Shown here: in pieces, positions 2,761 to 51,851 of the stretch
Numbering within the stretch: the stretch's first letter is position 1
Layout of the letters: each line of letters starts with the position of its first letter
Origin: Girardia tigrina
Taxonomy: Eukaryota
NCBI GenBank assembly: GCA_001938485.1
Contig: MQRK01243983.1
Location: 1 to 60,613 of the forward strand
DNA length: 60,613 nucleotides
Direction: 5' to 3'
The notes under the pieces: model-generated
The model's database searches: none
Seen by the model: only the letters and a program-made list of their open reading frames with translations
What the model was told of the DNA's origin: nothing
Program-made: the position numbers and the translations under genes

Positions 2761-5664
2761 AAAAAGTAAATCAAACGCAAATTAATCGATTAGCAAAAAC
2801 TCTTCATGGTAAAGAAAAAATGAGCTGACATTATTGGTAAAAATCATGGTAAAAACTAATTTATTTGATAGATTCCATTATTTCTCAAATCAACTCAAAA
2901 GTTCATTGGGGAGCTGGAAAGATTCCATTCCAAGTCTTTAGAGTCCCCCAAAAAAGCCTTTAATTCCCATTCAAAATATTTAAAGTTAATCGAGAATGAG
3001 GCCGAAAACACGAAAAATAGAAGAGAGTTCCGAAATTGAGAATACTCAGCGCTGTAATTTAAATTATTCCAGTCCAGAAAACTCAGAAGACACCTGAAAA
3101 TATTTCAGAAATTACAGTTGGATCCATAAAAAAATTAAAAATCTAAACACAAACGAAGAAACATTTAAATTTGGAAGTAGAATAAAATTTATTAATTTGA
3201 TATGTTTATTTCCTATTAGGTTTATAGAAGTAAAATAGAGCTTAAAATGAAAGCCCACAACAGCCCATAAATTTACCATTCAATGTACACATTTAAAATT
3301 ATCTTAAATAAATTCACCTAAAAATGTAGGTCGATCGAACATTCAAAACAGAATGTAATTTCACTAAATTGTAGTTTTGATATTTGAATAATCTATCAGT
3401 TTAAACTATTTAAACAAAATAAGATTAATGAATTTAATTTTATNATTTAATTTTATTAATTTGCGTATAATAAAAAGAGAACGAGTGTATCATAGGTAAA
3501 TTTTCGTTTATTTTGTAAAATGTGAAGGCAATGTTCGTAAAAGCGAGGTTTCCATTAAAATGGGGTTCGTTAAATCGGGTTTCGACTGAAAATGAAATGA
3601 AAACCAAGTTAAGAGCGTAAGTAAAAGTATAAAATTAGATAAGACACGAGTTTTTCTCAAAATATTTATGATCAAAACAAACCCATAAATTCAGAGATTT
3701 TCTAAAGAAATAATGAAAACTACAGAAAATTATTTGAAAAAAATATTATTTATATTAAAATGTCAAAAGTGTTTATCTGGTAAAAGATTTTAAAATTTTA
3801 TTAATAACTCTCTCAGAATTGGAATTCATAAATATTTTAAAGAGTTTTATAACAAGAAAAAAGAACAAAGTACAAAACAGACTTTAAATAATAGCGACCA
3901 TTTTTGGAGGCAGAAGAAAATACGTTATTTATTCACAAAATTCAGAACGAGATTTGTCTGTTCATATGTCAGACCTTTTGATATGCGTCAAATACCTGAA
4001 CGGAGAAACTGCCCTTCACAAGGGTCAATAAAAGAATTTCGACAACAAAGCATGTTAATTAATAAAAATTCAGTTCAATAAAAATAATTCATTTATTTAT
4101 TTATTAAAAAACAAATATTATTTATAATGTATAGTATATATATATATATATATAATCTTAACTATAATATATAAATTATTAATAAATAAAAATCTTACCA
4201 GATTGTAAAACAATAGCGCAAAGATAAGTTAATGCAATTTTGCACTGTGCTTTTATTACTGTAGCAAGACCTAATGAGCTCTATCTATAGCACATCTCAC
4301 TTCATAAATAGTGATCGATCAATAATTTTAGATTTTTTCTCATCAAAATAAAAAGCATTCTATATAAAAAAAATTGTATTCTAATTAAAAATTACAGAAA
4401 ATTTTGTTTTTTAAGACTAGTCTCTTAGTAAATAATATGTGGACAAGACATGTTTCGCAATTACGTAATGATTAGTGAAGAGATTATTCAGAATACAAGT
4501 CATTTATAATGCACATTAACTATTGCGTAATTCATAAATTTTACAAAAAAATCTTTAGTATAATTGGACAACTCACTTTGCAAATTTAAGCATGGTTTTA
4601 AATACTTTATTAAAAATGCCTTAGTGAATATATGCTCATAAAATGCTTCTTCAAGACAATAAATTTAGACTCATCGTTTAATTTTTCTTTATTTTTGCAT
4701 TTTTTATGTGATCAAGAATCGAGCTATTTCTACTCGATTAAGTAGGCTCAGCTATACCAGTGCAGAGATAGTGATTTATTTCTTAAATGTGAATCTCGCA
4801 TCTCTTTCAATGATATTGAGCTTAAGGCACTTCAGAGGGTCCATCCAAACTTAAGGGACTAGCAGCTCTATGATAGGATTCCTACGAAGTCTTCAACCTT
4901 CCGTTGACGAAATATATTCAGCCCCCTCAGAAAAATGACCAAACATGTTTGGATGTTCCATGGTTTTATATTCCTCTGGCTGATCTAGTGAAAGTAGAGC
5001 AGCTGATTTAAGACATTTTAAGTTTGATTTTTCTGAAAGTCGAGGTAATCGAAAACTTGCAACTAACCAGAAGATATTGCCGTAGACTGTCCTCCGATTT
5101 TATAAGTCTGATATCAGCTCTCCGGCTTTCGTATTTTTGAGAGAAATGAAGCAAAGGCCAGTTTATTGCTCACGTGGAAGAATCATGAAATTTGAGTACA
5201 ATTGCTGAGATATTGGTTGCATCGGCAATGGGAGCGTCTTTATTTTCAGATATTTGTAACATAATCTCTCTGTGGATGACAATAGCAGTGATCTTTAGAT
5301 CCTTTAAAGATATTAAGCCTTAGGCTTTTTTGGAGGTCTGAGACGCTTATTGCTTCAAAAGGCACTCCCCATATGGGGATTGACATGCCAAAGCTCCACC
5401 GCTGGACAGGCTTCAGAACACCCGTCGCCAATATTAAAAACCTTGGATCATTGCGATGCAATCGACCAGACGACTGAAGGGTCAGACGAATCCACAACAG
5501 CCTGACACTCAGGTTAGTGCTAAGCATTGTAAGTGGTTTGCAAGCCCCTGGTACTACAATAATCTGTCGGCGCAGATTTCAGCTTGCTTTCAGACACTTT
5601 AGCCTAAAGACGGAATCGTACCCAATTTAGTTTCCCAGGGATACTACGTGGAAGTATGTCTGCC

Positions 5665-33710: not shown

Positions 33711-35074
33711 TTTATGAACATAATGTTTAATAAAAAAAATCTGTTTAGAAATTGGGAAAAAAAGATAGAAAAGCTAAAAAAATTGCTAGAGAAAAAGAAA
33801 AAAAATATATGAATTTAACTTTAAAAGATCGTTTAGAAGTTGGGCAACGAAGTATACGAGATTTAGAAATCGCTCATGCTAGATTAGATTATTCAGTGAA
33901 TATGACTCAAGGGATAGTAAATGATTTATTTTAATTAAAATGAGAATTAAAATCAACACAAGAAAAAATATATGTTGCTGAAAAAAAATTAGGGTAAAGT
34001 AGTAGTAAAAAGTTCAAGTGGAATATTATAGATCATGTTAAGAAAGAGATGAGAAAAATAAGAAATTCCAAGAAAATAATAATGAATGGACATATTGATA
34101 TATATAATTTTATTTAATTTAAGTTTTATAATTTAAGTATAATAAATTATAACATTAATTTTTTTTACGAAAAAATTAAATCCCAATCTGTTTTTTTTAT
34201 TTAATCATAATTTTGTAATTTCTATTTTACATTAATTTTCTTAACATTTATTCACTTTTACCGAAATTAAATTATTCTAAAAATTAAATTTTTACTTAGA
34301 GAAAACTTTAATAATTATTTCAATCTATTGCAAAATTCATTTTTTACAGAGATCAAATTATTCTAAAAAAATAATTTTTACATATAGAAAACTTCTTTAA
34401 TAGTTCATTCTTATTAAAAAATTCATTTTAATTAGTAAAACATTATTTTAACTTATCTTAACTAAAAAATATGATTTTCAATTTAAAAATTTATAAACTT
34501 TTAAGTTTACAAGAATAATAAATTTTTAATAAATAAATTTACAAGAATACAGCAGTATTGTTTGAACCGTGTACCTTTTGAACTTTCAGCAGCACCCGGG
34601 ACGTTTCAGAGAATACTGAATTAATTATTTGAAGATTTGCTATTCTCTGGGGTAGTTATTTACCTAGATGATGTCTTAATTTACTCAAAATCAATGAAAG
34701 ATCATATAAGATTATTAAAAGAAGTATAGAATAGACTGAAAAAAGTAGGTTTAAAAGTCAATCCAGGGAAATGCAAATTCGGAGTGAGGGAGCTGGTATT
34801 TCTGGGACATACAATTAACAAAGAAGGTATCTCAACAAATAAATTGAAAGTTGCTGAAATTCAAAATTTTCCGATTCCAAAGTTCACTCAAAATTTGCGA
34901 GCATTTTTAGGTCTGTGTAACTAATATCGACGGTTTATCAAGAATTACGCATAATTAGCAGCACTTTTGCACAGTGCATGTAGCGAAAAATGTAAAGAAA
35001 TATTTTAGTCAGACGAGTGCGACAGAAGTTTTAACGAGTTGAAGCAAAAGCTATGTGGTGCACCAATGTGAACC

Positions 35075-35846: not shown

Positions 35847-37201
35847 TTTGGTTGGTCGAAAAATAATGGCGGTTTTTGAGCTTTATACTTTGTTTATCTA
35901 CTTTGATATGTATATAAGTTTAAATGCATTAGTGTTAGATATTATTTGAAATCTTATGNNNNNNNNNNNNNNNNNNNNNNNNNNNNNNNNNNNNNNNNNN
36001 NNNNNNNNATTAGTGTTAGATATTATTTGAAATCTTATGCCTAGCTGTATATTCCTATAGCCATTATTAACATATTGCTGTTATTTTTTAGAATATTTAC
36101 GGTGCTAAATTAATAATGGAACAAATTCAAATTCGAGCAATTTTCTTGTACGAATTTAAACTGGGTCGTAAAGCAGCAGAAACGGCTCGCAATATCAATA
36201 AAGCGTTTGGCAAGGGAACAGCTTCTGAGCACACAGTGCAACGATGGTTCCGAAAATTTTCTGATGGAGATGAAAAATTTGAAAATGAAGAAGGTCGTGG
36301 TCGTCCAGTTGCTGTGAACAACGACAATTTGAGGACAATGGTGAAAACAGATCCCCGTACAACAATCAGAGAACTTGCAGATTGGTTGGGCATTAGTCAT
36401 TCAACAGTCCTGTATCATTTAAAACAACTTGGAAAAATCAAGAAACTTGATAAATGGGTTCCACATGATTTGAATGAAAATCCAAAGAACCGACGCTATG
36501 AAATTTGTTCTGCCAATCATCTTCACAATAAAAACGATCCATTTTTTGATCTTATTGTTACATGTGATGAGAATTGGATCTTGTATGATAACCGATGTCG
36601 ATCTGCACAGTGGTTGGACAAAGATGAAATACCGAAACACTTTCCAAAACCGAAACTAACACCCCGTAAGATTATGGTGACAGTTTGGTGGTGTGATGCT
36701 GGAATCATCCACTATAGTTTCTTAAATCCAGGTGAAACAATCACTGCGGAGAGGTACTGTCATGAAATTGATGAAGTACATAAAAAATTGAAAACCCTTT
36801 GTCCGGGATTGGTCAATCGAAAAAGTCCCATCCTTCTTCATGATAACGCTAGACCTCATATTTCAAAAGTGACTCTTCAAAAGCTTAATGAGTTGGGCTA
36901 TGAAACCCTGTTTCATCCACCATATTCATCAGACCTCTCGCCAACGGACTTCTACTTTTTCAGACATTTGTACAACTTCCTACGTGAAAAAATTTTCAAA
37001 AACCAAAACGATGCTCAAAATGCCTTCCAAGAACTCGTCACTTCGAGAACCGATGCATTTTATGCTGATGTTTGTTTCTCGTTGGCAAAAATATATTGAT
37101 GCCAACGGTTCATACTTTGATTAATAAACTTTTGTTTCTGTGAATTTGCACGTCTTTGAAGTTTGTGTCCCAAAACGGCCATTATTTTTCGACCAAACTA
37201 A
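35847..37201 (+). mobile_element. full-length mariner (cecropia/Hsmar1-like), TA TSD, ~30-bp TIRs
   Basis: TA|TTTGGTTGGTCGAAAAATAATGGCGGTTTT ... AAAACGGCCATTATTTTTCGACCAAACTAA|TA. Confidence 0.95.
36116..37124 (+). pseudogene. mariner D,D34D transposase with a C-terminal frameshift
   Basis: WVPHDL, TCDENW, HDNARPH, HPPYSSDLSPTDF are in ORF 36116-37099; the natural end VSRWQKYIDANGSYFD* is in another frame (stop at 37124). Confidence 0.9.
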
Positions 37202-38664
37202 TAATTATATCTTAGATACAGATGCATCATTCGAATCAATAGGAGCAGTATTAAGTCAGATATCAGAAGAGAAAGAAGTAGTAATCGCGTATGCATCGAG
37301 GACTTTAACCACACATGAAAAAGGGTCCTGTGTGACAAGAAAGGAAAAAATAAGCTCTAAAGAGTTCATATTACATTTAAGCAATATTTATATGGCAAGT
37401 GATTTACAGCAAGAACTGATCATCAAGCACTGGTATATATGAAGAGTACTTCAAAACGAATAACTTCTCAATTCCAGACATGGTTGGCAAATATGGCGGA
37501 TTTCAACTTTGTTTTGAAGTATAGAAAAGGTCATGAACATGAAAATGCAGACAGATTATCACGGCCAAATGATTACGTCTGTGCCAAATGTGAAACAAAA
37601 CACGAAGAAACAAAATCAACAAAAGCAAGGGTGAAACACATCAATACAGTGGTGATTCCGTCTTCAATTCAATGGATAAAAGATGAAAAAGAAAAGTGCC
37701 TAAAGTTGAACCAGTTTCAACAAATACAGGAGATAGCAGAGGGTAGAAAGAATGAGATAACCAGTTATTACAACTAAAGGACCAATTAGTTAATCAGAAT
37801 GGGTTATGGGGTAGGAAAAAATGAAATTATGTGTTACCATTGGTTCTGAAGCAAATTTGAAGAGATTTCATCAGGAAAGTACACAAAGATTTATGTCATG
37901 TAGGTAAAAAAGACAAAGAAGTATATCCAAAAAAGTATATCCAATTATGCTACCAGATTTAGCGAAAGGGGTGCAAATAGTTATCAAAGAATGTCAGGAA
38001 TGCATACGCAGAAAAATTCCAATTGAAAAAACAAAGGAGAAGTTGATTCCCTTAAGAAGTAACGAGTTTTCAGAGCAATTCATGATGGATATCGCATATG
38101 TGGGTGACAAGAATAGAATGCACCCATATCTATTGGTCATGGTGGACTAGTTTTCGAAATTGGTCATTTTGACAGACATTAGAACTCAAAACGAAGAAAC
38201 AATAGTTCAATGCGTGTTGATGAAATGGATATTTAGATATGGGAAGCCAAAACAATATTAACAGACAATGGAAAATATTTTACTTGGGGAAAATTTAAAA
38301 ATTTCGCAGGAGATACGGAATTGAACAAAGATTTAGTAGCACATTTCAACATCAATCAAACGGGCTAACAAAAAGAACTATTCGAACAGTGAGAGACATG
38401 AGAGTAACAAGCAGAGTATACACATAGAAACGATCATGGTGGTAATCGTTCCGAAGATAGAATTCTGTTTAAATGCAACAGTACAGAGTACGACCGGATA
38501 TTCGTCCTTCGAAGTTGTGTTTGGTAATTTAAATTAAAGTGTAAATTAAACGAAATAATAAATTACGTATCTCTATTTAAAAATCATTATTTTTATGTAA
38601 AAATAGTTTGAGCGAAAAAAATCGAAATGTATTCTTTGGAAATTAATTCCAAACACTATTTTAA

Positions 38665-41641: not shown

Positions 41642-41868
41642 ATGAATTCGACCGATTTGCACTTGATGATCGATTATTTGGGCAGCAGCGGTATCGTTTT
41701 ATCACCGGAACAAAAATCGGTGCTACAAACGTCACTAGTGATACTGAAAAATGAGCAAAAGTTTAATAAAGTAATGTTTTGGGGATGCATCAAGGGAATC
41801 AAGTCGGAGTATTACATCGTGCAAGGGATCGGGGCCGACGAGATGAGCGACAAGAAGTGCTTGTACAG
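41642..41868 (+). CDS. RSPH9: radial spoke head protein 9, exon 1
   Basis: MNSTDLHLMIDYLGSSGIVLSPEQKSVLQTSLVILKNEQKFNKVMFWGCIKGIKSEYYIVQG; GT donor at 41869, 52-bp intron. Confidence 0.92.
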
Positions 41869-41920
41869 GTTGATGTTGCTGGATTGCTTTGATGAATGAT
41901 TGATGATGTTCTCGTTTCAG

Positions 41921-42089
41921 TAAGGACTGCATGAAGTGGGTCATTCTGCCGCCTCCGTCGGCGGAGGTCAGAGACAAGGCCGTGTTCTTCAAGGGGAGAT
42001 TCACGGGCGATCCAAGCAATGAATTCGAGCACGTCGAGACGAGACAGGTGCCGGGGGAGGGCGACGAGGTCCACGAGGAGCAAGAGACG
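41921..42089 (+). CDS. RSPH9: radial spoke head protein 9, exon 2
   Basis: TTTCAG acceptor; (S)KDCMKWVILPPP..KGRFTGDPSNEFEH..EEQET; GT donor at 42090. Confidence 0.92.
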
Positions 42090-42369
42090 GTTGGGATTGA
42101 TGAGTTGTTGATTAAATTACGAGTTTGATGTCCTCTTATCATGCTAAGTAAAGTCCATTGCATCTCGGTTAATTATATTACAATAAGTACTTTAATAATT
42201 CGCGGGATTCAGTTTTGTCCTAAAATTTAATCGAAAGTATAATCAAATTATAATGAGTGCGTGGACAATGACACAAGGTGAAGCAAAATCAGTGATAAAA
42301 TGTGCAGAAATCATTCAGAGTTTTTATTTTAACGAAAATCAAAATCATTTTTAGACGAACCTCAATTTA

Positions 42370-42910
42370 GATTATAATGGATCACAAGATTTGGTATTCC
42401 AGCGGAGATAGTGACAGACAGGGGCACGCAATTTCCCAGTTCTAATCAATCAAAACAACGGCATATCATCCACGGTCAAACGAAAAGGTTGAAAGGTTAC
42501 ATCGTACAATCAAAGCGCCCACAATGGAAACAGCAATTTAAACTCTAAGCCTACGAAACTGCGTTGATAAAAGCGGAAAGTCACCGGCTCAAAACGTTTA
42601 TAGCGCCAATCTAGCTATTCCTGACGCTATATTTCATCAACCAGAAGATTTAACGGTCTAATTGATAAAAACATTTCCGAAAGCGGAGAGATTGCCACAA
42701 GAAATATTCCAAACAGAGCCAACATCTCGAAAACTATCGAAAACTGAAAATTGTCGACATTCAAAAACAGAAGTTCCGTACTCGGGCCCTTACTAATTGA
42801 ACAAGAAAGATCCGAAATATTTCACTTTAGAGGATGGAAATACAGTATCGGTGGATCGACTCCAACCGGCGTTCATCATCGCCCACGAAAATTCTGAGGA
42901 AGAATTGTAA
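42370..42910 (+). mobile_element. Gypsy integrase remnant in RSPH9 intron 2
   Basis: WITRFGIPAEIVTDRGTQF, TTAYHPRSNEKVERLHRTIKA, PYSGPY, TVSVDRLQPAF. Confidence 0.85.
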
Positions 42911-43343
42911 TATCACAAATAATGTTGTCAAGTTATTTCCATTATTATTGTTAGGGGTTCTTTTTGGTGAACTGTAAATTTTTGATATTTTTAAGTTAAA
43001 AATCATAATTATATTTTAGATAAATTAAAAATAATGTTCGACTAATTAAAATGAAATAAGTTTTTAAAAAAAAATATAGTGTAATGATAATATTTTACTA
43101 ATTACATTGGAACAACTTTTTTATAAAAATTAGGTTTTAAAAAATCACAATTAAAATAACATTTTCGGAGTAAAAGAATATTTCGATATATCTTGTAACA
43201 CTTTTTAAAATAAAAGTCATAATGCTTATTGAAGTTAATAGTCCACGGAAATTCTCATTAAAAAATAATTTATAATTGAATGATTTAAAATTAAAGAAAA
43301 AATTATTTAGGAATTGAATTTTTACAGGACATATCCATTAATA

Positions 43344-43916
43344 TTAGGTGTATAACTTAGTTTTTTGGACTTTTTTGCAGAACAGACAAGTTTATTTATA
43401 TGACATAATAAGTTTTATTCTAATCAAAATATTTTCTATCGTTAATTATGACTTTCGACCATCTTTCAGGCAAATTATGAATTCCATCGAAAAAAAAGTT
43501 TTTGTCTTTTGATGCGATCCATTGTTCCAGCCATTTGTTTATATGTTCCTGGTTTCTGAAGTGCTGGTCCCGAAGAGCGCTTTGCATTGATCGGAGCAGA
43601 TGATAATCTGATGGGGCACAATCTGGTGAATAGGCAGCATGCGGTAGAATTTTCCATTTAAGTGCTTCCAACGTGTTTTTTACTTGTTTTGCGACATGTG
43701 ACCGAGCATTGTCATGGAGCAAAATCACTGTGCGCTTTTTTTTGGCTGGAATAGGATGTTTTTCCTTCAATGCATCGTTCAATTTCATTAACTGTTGTGC
43801 ATTAACAGTTTCATTCGAATTCAGCAGCTCATAGTACAGTACACCTTTCTAATCCCACCAAATGCACAACATAACCTTGCTTCCATGAATGTTTCTTTTT
43901 GCTGTTGACGTGGACG
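43344..43916 (-). mobile_element. mariner (Mos1/mauritiana-like) 3' half, remainder in the N-gap
   Basis: KVMLCIWWD, LLHDNARSHVA, PHAAYSPDCAPSDYHLLRSM, LPERWSKVI; TA|TTAGGTGTATAACT terminus. Confidence 0.9.
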
Positions 43917-46469
43917 NNNNNNNNNNNNNNNNNNNNNNNNNNNNNNNNNNNNNNNNNNNNNNNNNNNNNNNNNNNNNNNNNNNNNNNNNNNNNNNNNNNN
44001 NNNNNNNNNNNNNNNNNNNNNNNNNNNNNNNNNNNNNNNNNNNNNNNNNNNNNNNNNNNNNNNNNNNNNNNNNNNNNNNNNNNNNNNNNNNNNNNNNNNN
44101 NNNNNNNNNNNNNNNNNNNNNNNNNNNNNNNNNNNNNNNNNNNNNNNNNNNNNNNNNNNNNNNNNNNNNNNNNNNNNNNNNNNNNNNNNNNNNNNNNNNN
44201 NNNNNNNNNNNNNNNNNNNNNNNNNNNNNNNNNNNNNNNNNNNNNNNNNNNNNNNNNNNNNNNNNNNNNNNNNNNNNNNNNNNNNNNNNNNNNNNNNNNN
44301 NNNNNNNNNNNNNNNNNNNNNNNNNNNNNNNNNNNNNNNNNNNNNNNNNNNNNNNNNNNNNNNNNNNNNNNNNNNNNNNNNNNNNNNNNNNNNNNNNNNN
44401 NNNNNNNNNNNNNNNNNNNNNNNNNNNNNNNNNNNNNNNNNNNNNNNNNNNNNNNNNNNNNNNNNNNNNNNNNNNNNNNNNNNNNNNNNNNAATATGATT
44501 TATGCAAAATTGAATAAAATAACATATATACATATATATACATCGATATTATTATTTATATTTAGAATTTTAAAATCTGGTTTATTTAACTGAAATATTG
44601 TTCCTCATAAATTTGTTTGAATAATGAAAGTTGTATTAGAAATAAAGTTTGCGAATAATGACTTTGGATTTTAATCACGAACCCAATAATTATTACCTCT
44701 TTACTCCTCGAAAAGGAGAAAACTGAATCAATTTCATGTATTAAATCTAATACATTTGTAAACAGATAAATAAGCAACACAATCAATACAAAAATAATGT
44801 GTCGAAAGTAACAAAAATAGATAAAACAAGTGATAAAATGTCAATGAAATAAATTTAATTAATTTAAAACTAGGAAAATGGTAAACGTATTGTGAATGGT
44901 AAAAATGCATTAAAATTAATTGATGAACCACTCACTTAAGTCAGGGGACTTCGGTCGAAAAGCAAAAAAAAACATCAAAGTTTTTGTAGACAGACGACTC
45001 TTTTTTCAACAAAATTGCTAAAATGACAATGATACATAATTTATGTTTAAAAATTTTTGGGTTTATCAATTTAGAATTGATCATTTTCTAGAAAGTTAAT
45101 TTGAATCTTTACTGAAGAAAATTAATCAAGCATGACTGAAGGGTTGAGTCTTCCTCGAAGAAGATAATTTCGATTAACGTAGACATGTAAATACAGAATT
45201 GCTCAAAAGCAGGAACTGCACCATGTCCCGATTCCAACCCTCTGAGTCAAGTTTAAAGTGTTCTATAGCATCGTCAAAGAAGTAAGGACAAAGATCTCTT
45301 TTCTCACTTACGCCGAGCCACATTGTCACTTAACTGGATGCAGTCTATGTTCTCGGTCTACTTTAGGAATTTTAATTCTTCTGAAATGGGTATTTAATTT
45401 ATTGACGAACATATTTCATTAATAGAGGGTCATTTACCCATTATTAAGTTGTGGGTAAAATGCGATTCTTGTCTTACGAAATCTTAAACAGGTTTCGAGT
45501 ACGCTCATTGTATTTTGCTGTCCGGTTGCGTGAATTCAAGCACGATTTGCATATTAAACAATAATATATGTTGTATTTTATTAAGCTTCTGTAGAGAAGT
45601 GCGAGATATGCCCAGTTCAATACATCGTCATCAGCTTGACATTCAAGGTTCCAATTTAAAGCTTTCCCGTGCACATTGAAAGACACTACAAAATGGCTAG
45701 TGTAAGGCCACTGGGGTAGCAGAATTGACTGCTGATTTTCAAGAAAAATTAAATGAATTTCATTCTTTGCTTTTTTGGTGAATTTCTCTGTAGATAATTT
45801 AGAGGAAAAAATCTGCAAAATGTTATTAATCTTCAACAAATAAAGAAAAGTAACATCATTCTCAAAAGATATCAGATTTCCAAAAAGGTCTTGTGGTCAT
45901 GGAGGAATATAAATAAATAATTAGGCATGTAATACTGTGGTAATCGAGAGCCGATTTTGTATTTATTTAGCAGTCCATTCTACTTGCTTTCTCTCTTTCA
46001 TCCTGTACAATCCTCAAATTATTCTATGCGTATGTATCATTTTTTGGTCTGAACGAAGTTCAATTTAATATGAATGCGTGATAGCTTTTTTATTCACATG
46101 TATCATTTTTATGTGTTATTCTTTATGTTCGAAAAGAGTATAAGATTTTTTTTAGTGAAGAAAGAAGGAGCTAGTTTGAAGAAGCTCGAAAGAAGAATAT
46201 GATACAAGAAGCCAGCAAAGAACGAAGGATCATATTATTTAAATAAATAATAATGATTGTCATATAAACTATGACAACTAATTAGAATTTAAAAATTGAA
46301 ATTTAAAAAAAATTCAATAATCCATAAAATGAATTTATCATAAAACACTATGAATTATTAAGTAGTCCTACGAGACAATAAAACTGTGGTTTTCAATAAC
46401 ATTATTTTACATCTGTGTTCTACTTTTGGTGTTAACTGATTTACGAGTGATTACGGTTATGTCCTTGAA

Positions 46470-46800
46470 ATACTTTTTTTGGGTACCGTAGCTTTTTGGG
46501 CCGTGGGTGCACTCAATTATGCACAATCATATGGCTTGGGTTTGCATATTTTTGAGTGTCTCAGTAGGCGAGGAACCTGGTGGTGCCTATCTCCTCTCCC
46601 GGTATGGATGGCCGTTGGCTCAAAGGAGCTCATCCGCCCTTTGCTAGGTTTTGTTTTTCATCCTGCTAAGTGTCCACACACCTTCACCCAGGTTGCAATT
46701 CTACCAGTAATTTATTTGTCCATCAATTCATCTACCTCTAATCAAGTTTTCCTATCTCGTGACTAAACATTACCCTGAATTCATTGTGTTGAACTGAACA
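46470..46800 (-). mobile_element. RTE-like LINE 3' remnant with A tail
   Basis: Minus strand ends CACGGCCCAAAAAGCTACGGTACCC-A8, similar to the 3' end of the LINE at ~58400 (CACGGCCCAACGGCTAAGGTC). Confidence 0.45.
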
Positions 46801-47665
46801 GTGTTTTGGTTTTCCTCAATTGAGCAGATTGTATCACGTTATAAAAGTTATTATATTCTAATTATTTGATTTTTTAGTTAGTTAAAATACGTCACTAATC
46901 AGTTCCTATTTCATCATATTGTCTAGTATACGTGGATGAGTATTTTTATTATTCATTATAATATTTTGTAATCGTAAAAATTAAAGAAAGCTCTGTCGTC
47001 CAATATATTACACAATAAGGCGAATTGAAAAATTAGGAAGAGCAGCCTGATTATGAAGATAAAGAGTTTTATCCCAAAAATGAGTCAAAGAAGGAAGAAA
47101 CATCTCTCAATTTTATCCATCGAACGTTATTCGTTCTAATCTTGGCAGTTAAGTTTCCGAATGGTTTAGCAACAGGAGATTGTCAGTTTTTGCCAAGAAT
47201 TAATTTTGTTAAATATTTTTTAGTGTTAATTAATAAACTATAGATATCGATATATAGAGAAATATAATTTTGTGAATGTGAATAAGGATGTAGTGACCAT
47301 TATGGCAGTAACGTCCGTGAAGTCTCTGATGGAGGAAGGAGGATTGAGGTAGGAAGAGTAGGAGCCATTAATCTCGCTAACATTCTCTTTTGGGCCGTCT
47401 GATTAAATTGAGCATTTTATTTTGCTTTTATTTGCGAAAGTTAAATAATTATCATTTAAATATATATCATTTTTAATTATTTTTTATTTATAATTTTCAT
47501 GACAGCTTAGTTACCAAGTATTAATATTGTATTGGCCCGTTGTTTTTTATTTTAGGTAATATAATAAAAATAATAAAATAATGCAATAAGAAACATGCAT
47601 TTATACAACCGTTTAAATAAGAATTTAAGAATAAGCCTTCTTCAGGGGTTTATTTATTACCATTT

Positions 47666-47990
47666 GGGAACATCCATATATTATGTACGCACTGAAGGGG
47701 GAGAGGGGTATTTAAATTTAAAAGATTTTGCGTATGGGTGCGAATGATAATGGAGGTGGGTAATTATTAAATATGTAAACATGCAATGGTTTTCTATAAA
47801 AACATCTTTTTATTTTTCTGCTCTGTGAACACACCATCATTCTATCAACAAAGGTGGAATATTTTATAAAAATGGTGGTTCGAGACTCAATTTGTATGTG
47901 CTTATGGTAGTTCAAAATGTACATGGTGCAATGGGGGGGGGTAGGAGGGGGTTAAAATATTAACTTNTTTTGNGTATGTAATAAATGGAT
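47666..47990. mobile_element. PIF/Harbinger-like MITE
   Basis: GGGAACATCCATATATTATGTACGC...G-tracts...GNGTATGTAATAAATGGAT imperfect TIRs. Confidence 0.5.
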
Positions 47991-48391
47991 ATAATAATAA
48001 AAATAATAAAATAATGCAATAAGAAACATGCATTTATACAACCGTTTAAATAAGAATTTAAGAATAACCCTTCTTCAGGGGTTTATTTATTACCATTTGG
48101 GAACATCCATATATTATGTAGTTTAGGAAAATATCTCATGTGTGAGATCTTTGTAACTCTTGAAATTACCCATTTATTTAAGGTTATTTGTGACGTGTCA
48201 TTCCTTTTAGACTCCCTCTTTGATTGAACGTCCAAATCTTTGTGTATACGAATGGATAAAAGATACACCTACATAAGTAAAAAAACCTTTTATTACAAGA
48301 CTTTAGAAACTCTTTACCAAATTCAAAATTATTTTGATACAAATGATCAATTTGAGTCATAAGAAATAATCGTATTATCTTTTACCTATAG

Positions 48392-48521
48392 ATAACGATC
48401 AAGGAAGAAGACAGATTGGCGGCGGTGATCGCGGAAATCGATCACGATGTTTTCATTGTTCCTCGTGGATCGTACATTAAGCTCCCAACCGGACAAGTTA
48501 TAACAAACCGATCTTTTGAGG
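48392..48521 (+). CDS. RSPH9: radial spoke head protein 9, exon 3
   Basis: CCTATAG acceptor; ITIKEEDRLAAVIAEIDHDVFIVPRGSYIKLPTGQVITNRSFEG; followed by a 48-bp intron. Confidence 0.92.
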
Positions 48522-48569
48522 GTATAAAGCTTTGATTCTTGTTTCAATTTGTTCATAAAATACATTTAG

Positions 48570-48877
48570 GCCTTACAGTTTCTGAGTCGGCTAAAATGTC
48601 GTCTTATTTTCATTTTCGAGAGCCGATAGAATTACAAAAGAAACAGTTAATGGATTTGGCTAAAATGGATAAATCAATTGACTTTCTCGACTCAATTGAG
48701 ACGGATTTGCCACAGTTGAGCTGGTCGCTGCAATTCGACCGCGGCAGCAGTCTCATAATTCTCAAGAGTCTCTTGTGGCCTGGATACGTGTTTTATCAGG
48801 TCCCGGATACTCGGAATTTCGGTTCTCTTTACATCGGTTATGGAGAATACAATATTGACCTTCCTTTCATGCTGTAA
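48570..48877 (+). CDS. RSPH9: radial spoke head protein 9, exon 4
   Basis: LTVSESAKMSSYFHFREP..DFLDSI..WSLQFDRGSSLIILKSLLWPGYVFY..FGSLYIGYGEYNIDLPFML*. Exons sum to 834 nt = 277 aa. AATAAA at ~48905. Confidence 0.95.
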
Positions 48878-49349
48878 AAACAACAAACCATTTTTTAAAG
48901 ATTAATAAATGATTAATGCTGATTATTAATATATTATTATTATCATTATTATAATTATTATATTTTTTATTAATATTTTCACATGGCAGTAGAACATTGA
49001 CCCCCACAGCATCAAATTTGTCTCATTGAGAAGAATAAATGAAGCCCCAGGAGAGGCAACCAAAATTGGACCACAGAAAATGAAAGAAAATGGCTCACCA
49101 AAGTCCGATCAAAATTTTGGAAATGGATAAATATTTCATATATATATATATAAAAGTATAAACAATGATAAAAACAAAAAAGGAATTTAAAAACAAAAAA
49201 TAAATTATTACAAAAAATTATGATTGCAAAAAAATCTTTAAATAAAAGAATAGTTTTTGATAAAAATAGAAATTAAAAAAACGTTAAAAAATATGTATAA
49301 AGGGATTTTAAAAATAATAACTTGATTTTGCTTACATCGATATTGTTAA

Positions 49350-49787
49350 TGATTTATGGCTGTTTGATTGTAAAATGAGGAGGGTGACCCGACCGACATC
49401 AACAGCAACGAGAGTGTTCAATCGATTTAATGAAATAACTGACAATCCAAGTGTGATAATTACATGGGCACAGTGTTGTGTCACAGTTTGAGGGGCGGTA
49501 CTGGCGCTGGATTTGGTAGCAGGCTCACTCAATCTATACGAGACGAGTTTCAACTACATAAAATCTTCAATTGCACCACAGCGCCGTCTGATATCGGTGG
49601 TGACTCTCCCTTACAGTATTACAACATCCTATTGACTTTGGCCACTCTCAATCGTCTCAATGATGGAATATCCTTATTCCATAATAATTCTCTCCTCAAT
49701 CGACTGGGACATGATTTATCATACCCAATCAAATATCCGTACAGGGAATTCGATAACACTCATCATATGGGTTCTCTCCCACATTAA
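49350..49787 (+). pseudogene. divergent tubulin fragment, zeta(eta)-tubulin-like; possibly one exon or a pseudogene
   Basis: KCDNYMGTVLCHSLRGGTGAGFGSRLTQSIRDEF..APSDIGGDSPLQYYNILLTLATLNRLNDGISLFHNNSLL; tubulin signature plus a GDSPLQxYN motif. Upstream continuation needs a frameshift or splice at ~49445. Confidence 0.7.
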
Positions 49788-51851
49788 TCTGTTTCCGTAA
49801 TGGATGCACTTAGCTGGGTTAGCACCACATGATTGACACCGCACATTATTACATGCATACATTATATCATCAAACTCTCAATCCTGTTACTCAATTTCAT
49901 TCTCCATAATCACGCATACTTTCCACATACATCTAATAATGATAATAATATGTTTATAATAATAATCTCAATAATAATTAACAACCATAATAATAATAAT
50001 TCACACATCCTTACAATATTGTTGAATAAAAATTCAATAATGTTGAATGAAAAAATTATATTATTGAATAAAAAAATTTTTTTTTGGAATAACACTGTAA
50101 AAACAAACATCCTTCCATTACTTTTGGAATACCCTATGTAAGTAGCGTTTATGCCACTTTCATTATTATCACATTCTAAAGCCATAATTNNNNNNNNNNN
50201 NNNNNNNNNNNNNNNNNNNNNNNNNNNNNNNNNNNNNNNNNNNNNNNNNNNNNNNNNNNNNNNNNNNNNNNNNNNNNNNNNNNNNNNNNNNNNNNNNNNN
50301 NNNNNNNNNNNNNNNNNNNNNNNNNNNNNNNNNNNNNNNNNNNNNNNNNNNNNNNNNNNNNNNNNNNNNNNNNNNNNNNNNNNNNNNNNNNNNNNNNNNN
50401 NNNNNNNNNNNNNNNNNNNNNNNNNNNNNNNNNNNNNNNNNNNNNNNNNNNNNNNNNNNNNNNNNNNNNNNNNNNNNNNNNNNNNNNNNNNNNNNNNNNN
50501 NNNNNNNNNNNNNNNNNNNNNNNNNNNNNNNNNNNNNNNNNNNNNNNNNNNNNNNNNNNNNNNNNNNNNNNNNNNNNNNNNNNNNNNNNNNNNNNNNNNN
50601 NNNNNNNNNNNNNNNNNNNNNNNNNNNNNNNNNNNNNNNNNNNNNNNNNNNNNNNNTTTTTAATTTTTTAAAATATTTAATAAGCAAATTAACATAAAAA
50701 TATTTTACCCTTTAAATTAAAAAAATAATAAACTATTCAGGCGAGATAAAAATTTAAAATTAACCCCTCATACCCTATATATATATATTCTAATTTAATT
50801 TTTTATTAAAATTAAATATATAAAGTATTCAGTCGGAAAGTAAATTTAAAGTCATTAAATGTAACATAGCTCGTTACGGCAAACATTGAAATTAACGAGC
50901 CTTATAATAAATAACTCTTACTTTTGCAGAAAGTTGCCGCAACGGATATTACTTTCTAAAAGTAGAACAACTGTGAAACTCAAAATTACAAGTGACAATT
51001 ACGTTTACGTCATTATTTTGAGTACAATTTTTAATGAATATTTTAATGGATGGTTTTAGTGGAAAGAAGATAAAAACGGGAGGATGAGTGTCATTAATAT
51101 TGCGGCTTTTATTGACATTTAAAGAAAGTAGCGCAATGAAACGAAAGGCGTAAATATATTAGTGATAGTGAGATGTTAGCGAACCATGAATTTGTCCTTT
51201 GTTATTATTATTCAACTCTAACATTATGATTGCGTACATATTTAATTAACAAAAAAAACTGAAGCTGGCGCCGAAAACTTGGCTTTTCGTTTTACGACAT
51301 GAGATTTGCAATTGCTCAATACCCATGGGTATAATAAATTTAAACGTTATGATTTCATTCTTTTTATAGTTAAATAATAGATGAAGAAAAGGGGATTCTT
51401 TTACTTCGTCCCTTTTCTCTTACAAAGTTACCAGAAAAATTTAAAATTGTCAAAGTCATCATTTCACAAATGAGATAAAACCTTTTGCTTTGAAAAAGAA
51501 AAATTCATTGATTTTTTAAAATAAACAGAAGATTCAAAACTGGTTGCACATCAATTTATCATAACGGCAGAGATTACTAATCCAGAAAAACTGCTCTAAA
51601 GAGTATAAGTGGATCAAAGATTCTATAGCTCTTAACGCCAGCTGAGTAGCTATGGACTACTACATGCCTTTGTTTTGCGAAAATTGTACCCACGATTTGC
51701 AAATTGTTTTCTATGTGAAATAGTACTGGAATGTTTAGGCAAAACCTATGAAATAAAAATATCGATATCTGGAGGCTGTATGAATAACACATATATCTAC
51801 AGGTATAAATAAATTTTGTATAAATCAATGCACCGACAAATTTGAAATTTT

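Follow-up and report, generated by a model that had tools for sequence, protein, structure and literature searches.

The locus examined here raises the question of why a block of tubulin sequence should stand behind the gene RSPH9, on the same strand, in Girardia tigrina. The window is the whole 60,613-nt stretch of contig MQRK01243983.1 that was analysed (30% GC), and own-genome searches covered the 1.43 Gb assembly. The original prediction, made from the letters of this DNA, read the block as zeta-tubulin caught during pseudogenisation, as a partial duplicate, or as one half of a co-transcribed ciliary gene pair. Our analysis indicates that it is probably a decayed, intronless copy of zeta-tubulin exons 5 and 6 in the remnant of a long terminal repeat (LTR) of a BEL/Pao retrotransposon, likely captured by splicing from a fixed point of the LTR onto a host exon.

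The tubulin block and its intact parent

The tubulin signature picked out by the original prediction is real. A single + strand frame at 49443-49781, closed by TAA at 49782-49784, carries KCDNYMG, HSLRGGTGAG, GDSPLQYYNILLTLATL and DGISLFHN, and its match to Pfam Tubulin (E = 6.8e-13) lies above the cut-off. Searching the assembly with the block gave 29 matches, eight of them at 76% identity or more. The check proposed at the time, a tblastn search for an intact zeta gene elsewhere, found one on contig C225056: eight exons from position 3969, with an open frame of 427 amino acids beginning MSSVIFVGIGQCGNQI. Six of its seven introns are GT-AG and one has a GC donor, apparently in the last intron (C225056:15221-15299); one donor in the gene begins GTGT. 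An identical second copy of exon 6 is present on C169757. With an intact gene on C225056, a zeta-tubulin caught during pseudogenisation is the wrong description of this species. The features of the element in the window are these:

49356-49360, + strand: putative 5-bp target-duplication flank, placed by comparison with sibling copies; the right-hand copy is gone with the 3' end of the element
49361-49438, + strand: 5' end of the BEL/Pao LTR, starting with TG and including the start of a small-Tim-like piece; the same start is seen in 32 further rows
49439-49450, + strand: end of a coiled-coil segment (its final 12 nt, closing with CAATCCAA), where the fixed capture point lies
49451-49654, + strand: copy of zeta-tubulin exon 5, complete from its first base (parent C225056:10872-11075), with GGGTG changed to RGGTG
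49655-49798, + strand: copy of zeta-tubulin exon 6, limited to its first 144 nt (parent C225056:14638-14952), without the 3.56-kb intron
49815-50010, no strand given: unrelated repeat in place of the 3' part of the LTR, a 95% match to L139

Partial duplicate, the second of the earlier options, is the one that fits. The window copy begins on the first base of exon 5 (204 nt), crosses the exon 5/6 junction with no intron, and differs from the parent at 19 of 348 bases (5.5%): six changes are silent, 12 are replacements, including the one in GGGTG, and one creates the stop. Tested against a silent fraction of 0.23, this pattern is compatible with neutral decay (P = 0.25). Exons 1-4 and 7-8 are missing, and exon 6, which carries the premature TAA at 49782-49784, may reach about 49814 beyond a 6-nt deletion. 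The parent has a full-length open frame and an intact GGGTG, neither of which is found in the window copy, and the latter probably makes no tubulin. Similarity had been said to fade near 49710, which is true against distant homologues only; against the parent gene it continues to 49798. The AAG at 49449-49451, once suggested as a host acceptor, consists of the last AA of the element and the first G of zeta exon 5, the true acceptor of the parent being CAG. The upstream segment TRVFNRFNEITD is out of frame, as had been noticed, and is retroelement sequence, not tubulin. The absence of an N-terminal exon, reported for the interval between RSPH9 and the block, extends to the whole window, where tblastn with nine zeta-type proteins found none; a GNQ-like frame at 49030-49130, considered as a hidden N-terminal exon, was dropped when tblastn gave no match. 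The window peptide, used as a query against longer proteins, returned no homologue.

Four further intronless copies (C223639, C175987, C57562 and C181929) lie 4.3%–5.3% from the parent. They share about five differences from it, and both of those that reach the right junction share that junction, which suggests that the five zeta copies likely stem from one capture. Over the tubulin stretch, contigs that are likely RNA (by the tool's guess) carry the letters of the parent; one extends into parent exon 4, and three continue in exon 6.

Among 1.84 billion representatives, the best matches are animal proteins about 420 amino acids long, mostly auto-named delta or delta-like. A quick tree without bootstrap was built from 54 rows, drawn from 150 matches, the parent, the window copy and an alpha-like frame of the same genome. 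It places parent and copy in a 19-row set (support by SH-aLRT, a likelihood-ratio test, 96) with "tubulin zeta [Halisarca]" (P0024), nested in a 40-row set (SH-aLRT 97) that excludes rows named tubulin delta or Tubd1. The zeta identity proposed for the block agrees with this grouping, which holds no rows labelled epsilon and so places zeta against delta only, with a long branch of 1.38. The motifs G(E/D)(S/T)PLQxYN and delta-type GEVxVQxYN, their attribution checked against the source labels of the rows, largely sort with the two tree sets, in keeping with the motif argument put forward earlier. The 60 matches listed from the PDB include only gamma, beta and prokaryotic tubulins. Zeta-tubulin is part of the ZED module (PMC4741028), and like the zeta-tubulin of that module the parent groups with labelled tubulin zeta, apart from delta. 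The window copy, in contrast, is fragmentary and carries a stop, and the basal-foot function could concern the parent only. An intact zeta-tubulin in a flatworm can be tested in multiciliated skin. Elsewhere in the genome, locus L009 (C31554:2405-2680) is a divergent alpha-like tubulin with one 447-amino-acid open frame and a long acidic tail, and there are several further long, uninterrupted tubulin frames.

A BEL/Pao long terminal repeat as carrier

The sequence in front of the tubulin copy, 49361-49450, is a repeat. A first look gave 469 candidates, 40 of them scored, and in 32 of 41 rows the match is confined to this part; the upstream flanks of the copies are unrelated to each other, duplicates excepted. 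Complete copies are mosaics of 0.5–6.8 kb that start with TG and end with CA. Among the 13 copies with both ends, the 5-bp target duplication is exact in six, matches at four of five bases in three, at three in one and at two in three. Longer copies have small-Tim-like and coiled-coil pieces before the slot in which the cargo sits, and CCAAT repeats and a piece of SAICAR synthetase after it; the small-Tim-like piece matches zf-Tim10_DDP at 1.6e-6 in a longer sibling.

On two contigs (C248265 and C218711) the leader seen in the window is preceded by a polypurine tract and internal sequence of the family, which in C248265 is Pao gag-pol (Peptidase_A17, 9e-42; integrase absent). In 24 out of 25 loci that contain the internal 3' region, this region ends in a polypurine tract followed by TG, and most sequences diverge within about 20 nt. 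A full-length relative, C254813, has two LTRs of about 1.86 kb that are 97.3% identical, an exact 5-bp duplication and a TGG primer site 4 nt past the 5' LTR. Its domains run ubiquitin, DUF1759, protease, reverse transcriptase, Peptidase_A17 and integrase, in frames that are broken, as they are in C248265. The polypurine tract, the Pao neighbours and the two-LTR copy together establish that the repeat is an LTR. Sequence downstream of the 3' ends of 30 loci is common only to duplicates, and full-length copies are therefore a minority; most copies are solo LTRs. This ties a gene-collecting repeat to the LTR of a BEL/Pao retrotransposon.

The cargo sits after the polypurine tract and before the 3' end of the LTR, that is, inside the LTR and not in the internal coding region. 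Host-like pieces, seen as weak Pfam matches, are likewise inside the repeat common to both LTRs of C254813. The window copy retains only the 5' 438 nt of the LTR. About 735 nt of the longer arm were deleted from it at a short repeat, within the 49439-49450 region, and probes for the promoter, PAICS and 3' end of the element have no match anywhere in the window.

Other kinds of carrier were considered. The 3' end of a long interspersed element (LINE) or Penelope element, or a transposon with terminal inverted repeats, is ruled out by the fixed 5-bp duplication and the Pao neighbours. An L1-type processed pseudogene was rejected on the fixed 5' end, the lack of poly(A) and the 5-bp duplication in the complete zeta copy C223639. 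Capture at the DNA level, by a Helitron or pack-type DNA transposon or by segmental duplication with later intron loss, might be suggested by the many-fragment host mosaics, which are typical of such elements (PMC6431247), and by the lack of an internal coding region in most copies. But cargos are intronless wherever parent exons can be mapped, the copies have TG..CA ends and 5-bp duplications with a 5' end that follows a polypurine tract and Pao gag-pol, and the two-LTR copy C254813 largely refutes this route, which we consider very unlikely.

The LTRs contain further sequence of note. L022:2095-2330 and its siblings share a conserved block with CCAAT repeats and a TTTGGCGCGA-like motif, which we take to be E2F-like, and the composition of this block suggests a putative promoter for dividing cells. 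In most 3' LTRs (L216-L240) the first 1.3 kb past the polypurine tract holds differing host-like sequence, by eye Rab-, SMC-, phosphatase- and GTPase-like. A second donor slot may lie near the LTR start, at a point where L233 has TGTAAG|GTGAGA and both L219 and L237 have TGTAAG|ATTAGG. In C254813:43777-53975 (L274, L275) a ubiquitin domain lies ahead of gag, as it does in L205, and there are weak IBR and methyltransferase matches within the LTR; past the promoter block the LTR has what is presumably a U1A/U2B''-like start.

The capture point, its cargos and known precedents

A census of the fetched loci (31 rows, one locus being present twice; one further copy was missed by the seed) gives 30 distinct copies with the point CAATCCAA, carrying eight cargos in 9, 7 (USP), 5 (zeta), 3 (mitofusin-like), 2, 2, 1 and 1 copies. 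The mitofusin-like cargo is Dynamin_N by Pfam, and we take its source to be a mitofusin-like gene. All six cargos that could be traced to host loci start on the base right after CAG or TAG, a pattern (YAG) found at a fraction of 0.02 of window positions. Introns have been removed inside four cargos (zeta, USP, mitofusin-like and one more), and in a fifth, two host segments meet at AG/GT edges: the cargo is of RNA origin. On the other side, the three clearly resolved right junctions lie in mid-exon and share about 7–11 bases with the element. From exact YAG starts on the left and mid-exon microhomology on the right, we infer capture by splicing from an LTR donor, followed by template switching.

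The same facts bear on the model of Tan et al. (2016), in which both junctions would arise by reverse-transcriptase template switching between element RNA and mature mRNA, here with a hot spot at the capture point. Microhomology at the right junctions and the internal deletions of the arm agree with such switching. Yet the left junction falls on the first base of an exon in six of six cases, and the native upstream exon ends of zeta and the mitofusin-like gene have no homology with the element side. This base-exact signature, an acceptor on the left and microhomology on the right, argues for splicing over template switching alone, which we regard as quite unlikely.

Under the splicing reading, an element with a splice donor in the U3 of its 3' LTR would have inserted, in sense, upstream of or inside the host gene. 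Splicing of read-through RNA would have bypassed the LTR poly(A) site, joining the donor to the acceptor of exon 5 and exon 5 to exon 6. Reverse transcriptase, working on a normal co-packaged RNA, would then have jumped into the host exon at a short homology, giving the right junction. Copied as part of the LTR, the cargo would have spread mostly as solo LTRs, and one copy would have inserted 483 nt past RSPH9, where it would have lost its 3' part and undergone neutral decay.

Several observations weigh against this reading. At the level of the carrier, C254813 is from a different subfamily, with 73% identity across the final 410 internal bases, and does not have the capture slot; four of the 13 complete copies match only two or three of the five duplication bases; and the LTR status of the window copy is read from 90 nt and its siblings, its 3' end being lost. 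Two of the eight cargos are untraced, and for four of the six traced ones (USP and three unnamed) the evidence for an upstream intron is not RNA but YAG, an AT-rich context and a sudden loss of homology. The exon-6 donor follows the zeta right junction by 4 nt, and this junction could be either microhomology or a slipped exon end; one mitofusin-like block ends on a donor, with the next piece untraced. Past the fixed point no intron-like donor was found, the exact 15-nt pattern giving seven matches (three zeta, four unrelated) against six for the control. A probable host source of the coiled-coil arm lies on C249331, where a 54-nt intron is present that is missing from the element, but there the coiled-coil exon enters a 2-kb assembly gap 12 nt short of the point, and any native donor would be out of view.

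Contigs on the C249331 coiled-coil locus confirm one intron and show that the message continues. None of the five cargos compared maps past the gap, and other copies gave only distant repeat matches. A homologue search with the coiled-coil exon came back empty and the gene is absent from the Atlas, so it is unnamed. The weak step of the mechanism is the donor: either a donor-bearing ancestor has been lost or was left unassembled, or the first bases of the zeta exon served as a later donor.

The latter option would make the Pao LTR a self-renewing exon trap, in which zeta exon 5, starting with GT, re-creates the donor at the same junction and zeta LTRs then take up other cargos. In its favor, the five zeta copies are the only ones of the 30 with GT at the point, and donors in this genome are lax (GTGT in the parent). 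Against it, several other cargos keep right-arm sequence that is missing from the zeta copies, and the mutations that lineages have in common do not suffice to order them; an attempt to derive the order of cargos from these mutations yielded a star-like pattern. We offer the trap as a tentative and rather doubtful idea.

The splice might also have occurred in trans, with LTR transcripts donating their exon to distant host pre-mRNA acceptors and no insertion nearby. The six exact acceptor starts would be accounted for just as well; the host falls among flatworms, where trans-splicing exists, and a flatworm LTR transcript has been reported to use a trans-splice acceptor in cis (PMC4558846). The family leader is also absent from the 48-kb parent contig C225056, although an insertion that caused a capture need not be fixed in the population. 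Trans-splicing still requires a donor, and none was found, whereas read-through and splicing in cis is a documented route of retroviruses (PMC4276931). We therefore hold it unlikely, though cis and trans cannot be told apart with the present data. As a separate observation, another subfamily (L123, L125-L129) has the 5' part of the same mitofusin-like mRNA past its promoter block; with pieces in two subfamilies, this gene would have been captured at least twice.

Tan et al. (2016, PMC5131818) described LTR-mediated retrocopies in which 25 of 29 junctions had microsimilarity, and the mosquito BEL18 case and Drosophila MAX (Pao) cases are among those listed there. In the Drosophila Gypsy element BLASTOPIA (PMC5131818), which has 276-nt LTRs, a fixed switch site at about 1775 in the internal region, near exon junctions, served several genes. 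The family described here resembles it in carrying partial, intronless host mRNA flanked by LTR sequence, in using one fixed site for several genes and in recopying. It differs in that BLASTOPIA cargo replaces the internal region, whereas the present cargo lies in the LTR and spreads as solo LTRs. It differs also at the junctions: microsimilarity, expected at both switch points, is found on the right in three cargos and is absent on the left in the two with a known native exon, the 5' junction coinciding to the base with the acceptor, and one site serves at least eight cargos. The word "splice" has no match in the nine supplements of PMC5131818 that were searched. BLASTOPIA is the closest precedent, and its fixed site, for which there is no explanation so far, becomes testable by the same acceptor and microhomology signature.

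Retroviral capture proceeds by a splice and then a template switch. In SVA_F1, the element reportedly supplies the acceptor, whereas the Pao LTR supplies the upstream side. Oncogene capture by retroviruses, which follows promoter insertion, is very rare and involves read-through and splicing between viral and cellular sites (PMC4276931); as in our case, its 5' junction is defined by splicing and its 3' junction by recombination. It usually puts cargo into the coding interior, whereas here capture is repeated, in the germ line and in U3, and the cargos decay. SVA_F1 gained MAST2 sequence by splicing (PMC3287187), and likewise shows a splice adding a host exon to a retroelement that multiplies as a subfamily; unlike the Pao LTR, it is a non-LTR element, mobilised by L1, with a single host gene. 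In the literature searched, as judged by titles and the starts of abstracts and with subscription journals outside its reach, there is no description of host exons in flatworm Pao LTRs. What sets the present family apart is cargo in the LTR of a Pao element, with at least eight cargos at one base and no homology on the left where this can be checked. Cargo in an LTR outlives the formation of solo LTRs, and one capture can thus scatter host exons widely.

The RSPH9 neighbor

Two features outside the element bear on the question of a gene pair:

41642-48877, + strand: RSPH9, exons 41642-41868, 41921-42089, 48392-48521 and 48570-48877
48904-48909, + strand: AATAAA just past the stop, from its sequence the likely RSPH9 poly(A) signal

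The RSPH9 model has four exons and an open frame of 277 amino acids that ends at 48877. Named RSPH9 proteins match its last exon at up to 64% identity, and its last intron is skipped in likely-RNA contigs of three runs. A quick 37-row tree places RSPH9 with trematode proteins (SH-aLRT 95), which agrees with the earlier guess that the host is a flatworm. RSPH9 contigs stop at 48916 (X1 and X2, one sample) and at 48895 (X5), and no listed contig, in four runs from at most three samples, bridges RSPH9 to 49361 or carries window-specific tubulin letters. Contigs show presence only and none is on record as RNA, and RNA data on read-through were counted neither way.

A co-transcribed RSPH9-zeta pair, with zeta freed from read-through by addition of a spliced leader, is suggested by the two cilia-related sequences standing 483 nt apart on one strand in a flatworm host. 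Against it, exons 1-4 and 7-8 are missing from the zeta copy, which also has a stop and a damaged signature; the likely-RNA contigs over the tubulin stretch have the parent's letters and flanking exons; and the four siblings have no RSPH9 link in the fetched flanks, while the intact gene lies elsewhere, the very finding that the original prediction had said would make the adjacency incidental. What would be the upstream part of a spliced-leader operon is here a variable LTR arm of 90 to 825 nt ahead of an incomplete gene (the spliced-leader sequence of the species was not searched for). A piece that is retroelement cargo at five unlinked places lends the pair no support; we judge it extremely unlikely, and the adjacency is likely incidental. 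RSPH9 and zeta do not form an operon and zeta is not lost, which disposes of a false lead.

RSPH9 intron 2 contains a 127-nt near-exact direct repeat (47561-47687 and 47994-48120), possibly an assembly duplication. Mariner-like transposase frames, recognised by eye, lie at 36092-37096 (+) and, inside the same intron, at 43848-43423 (-), and Gypsy-like pol scraps are found at 34730-34921 and 37403-37774.

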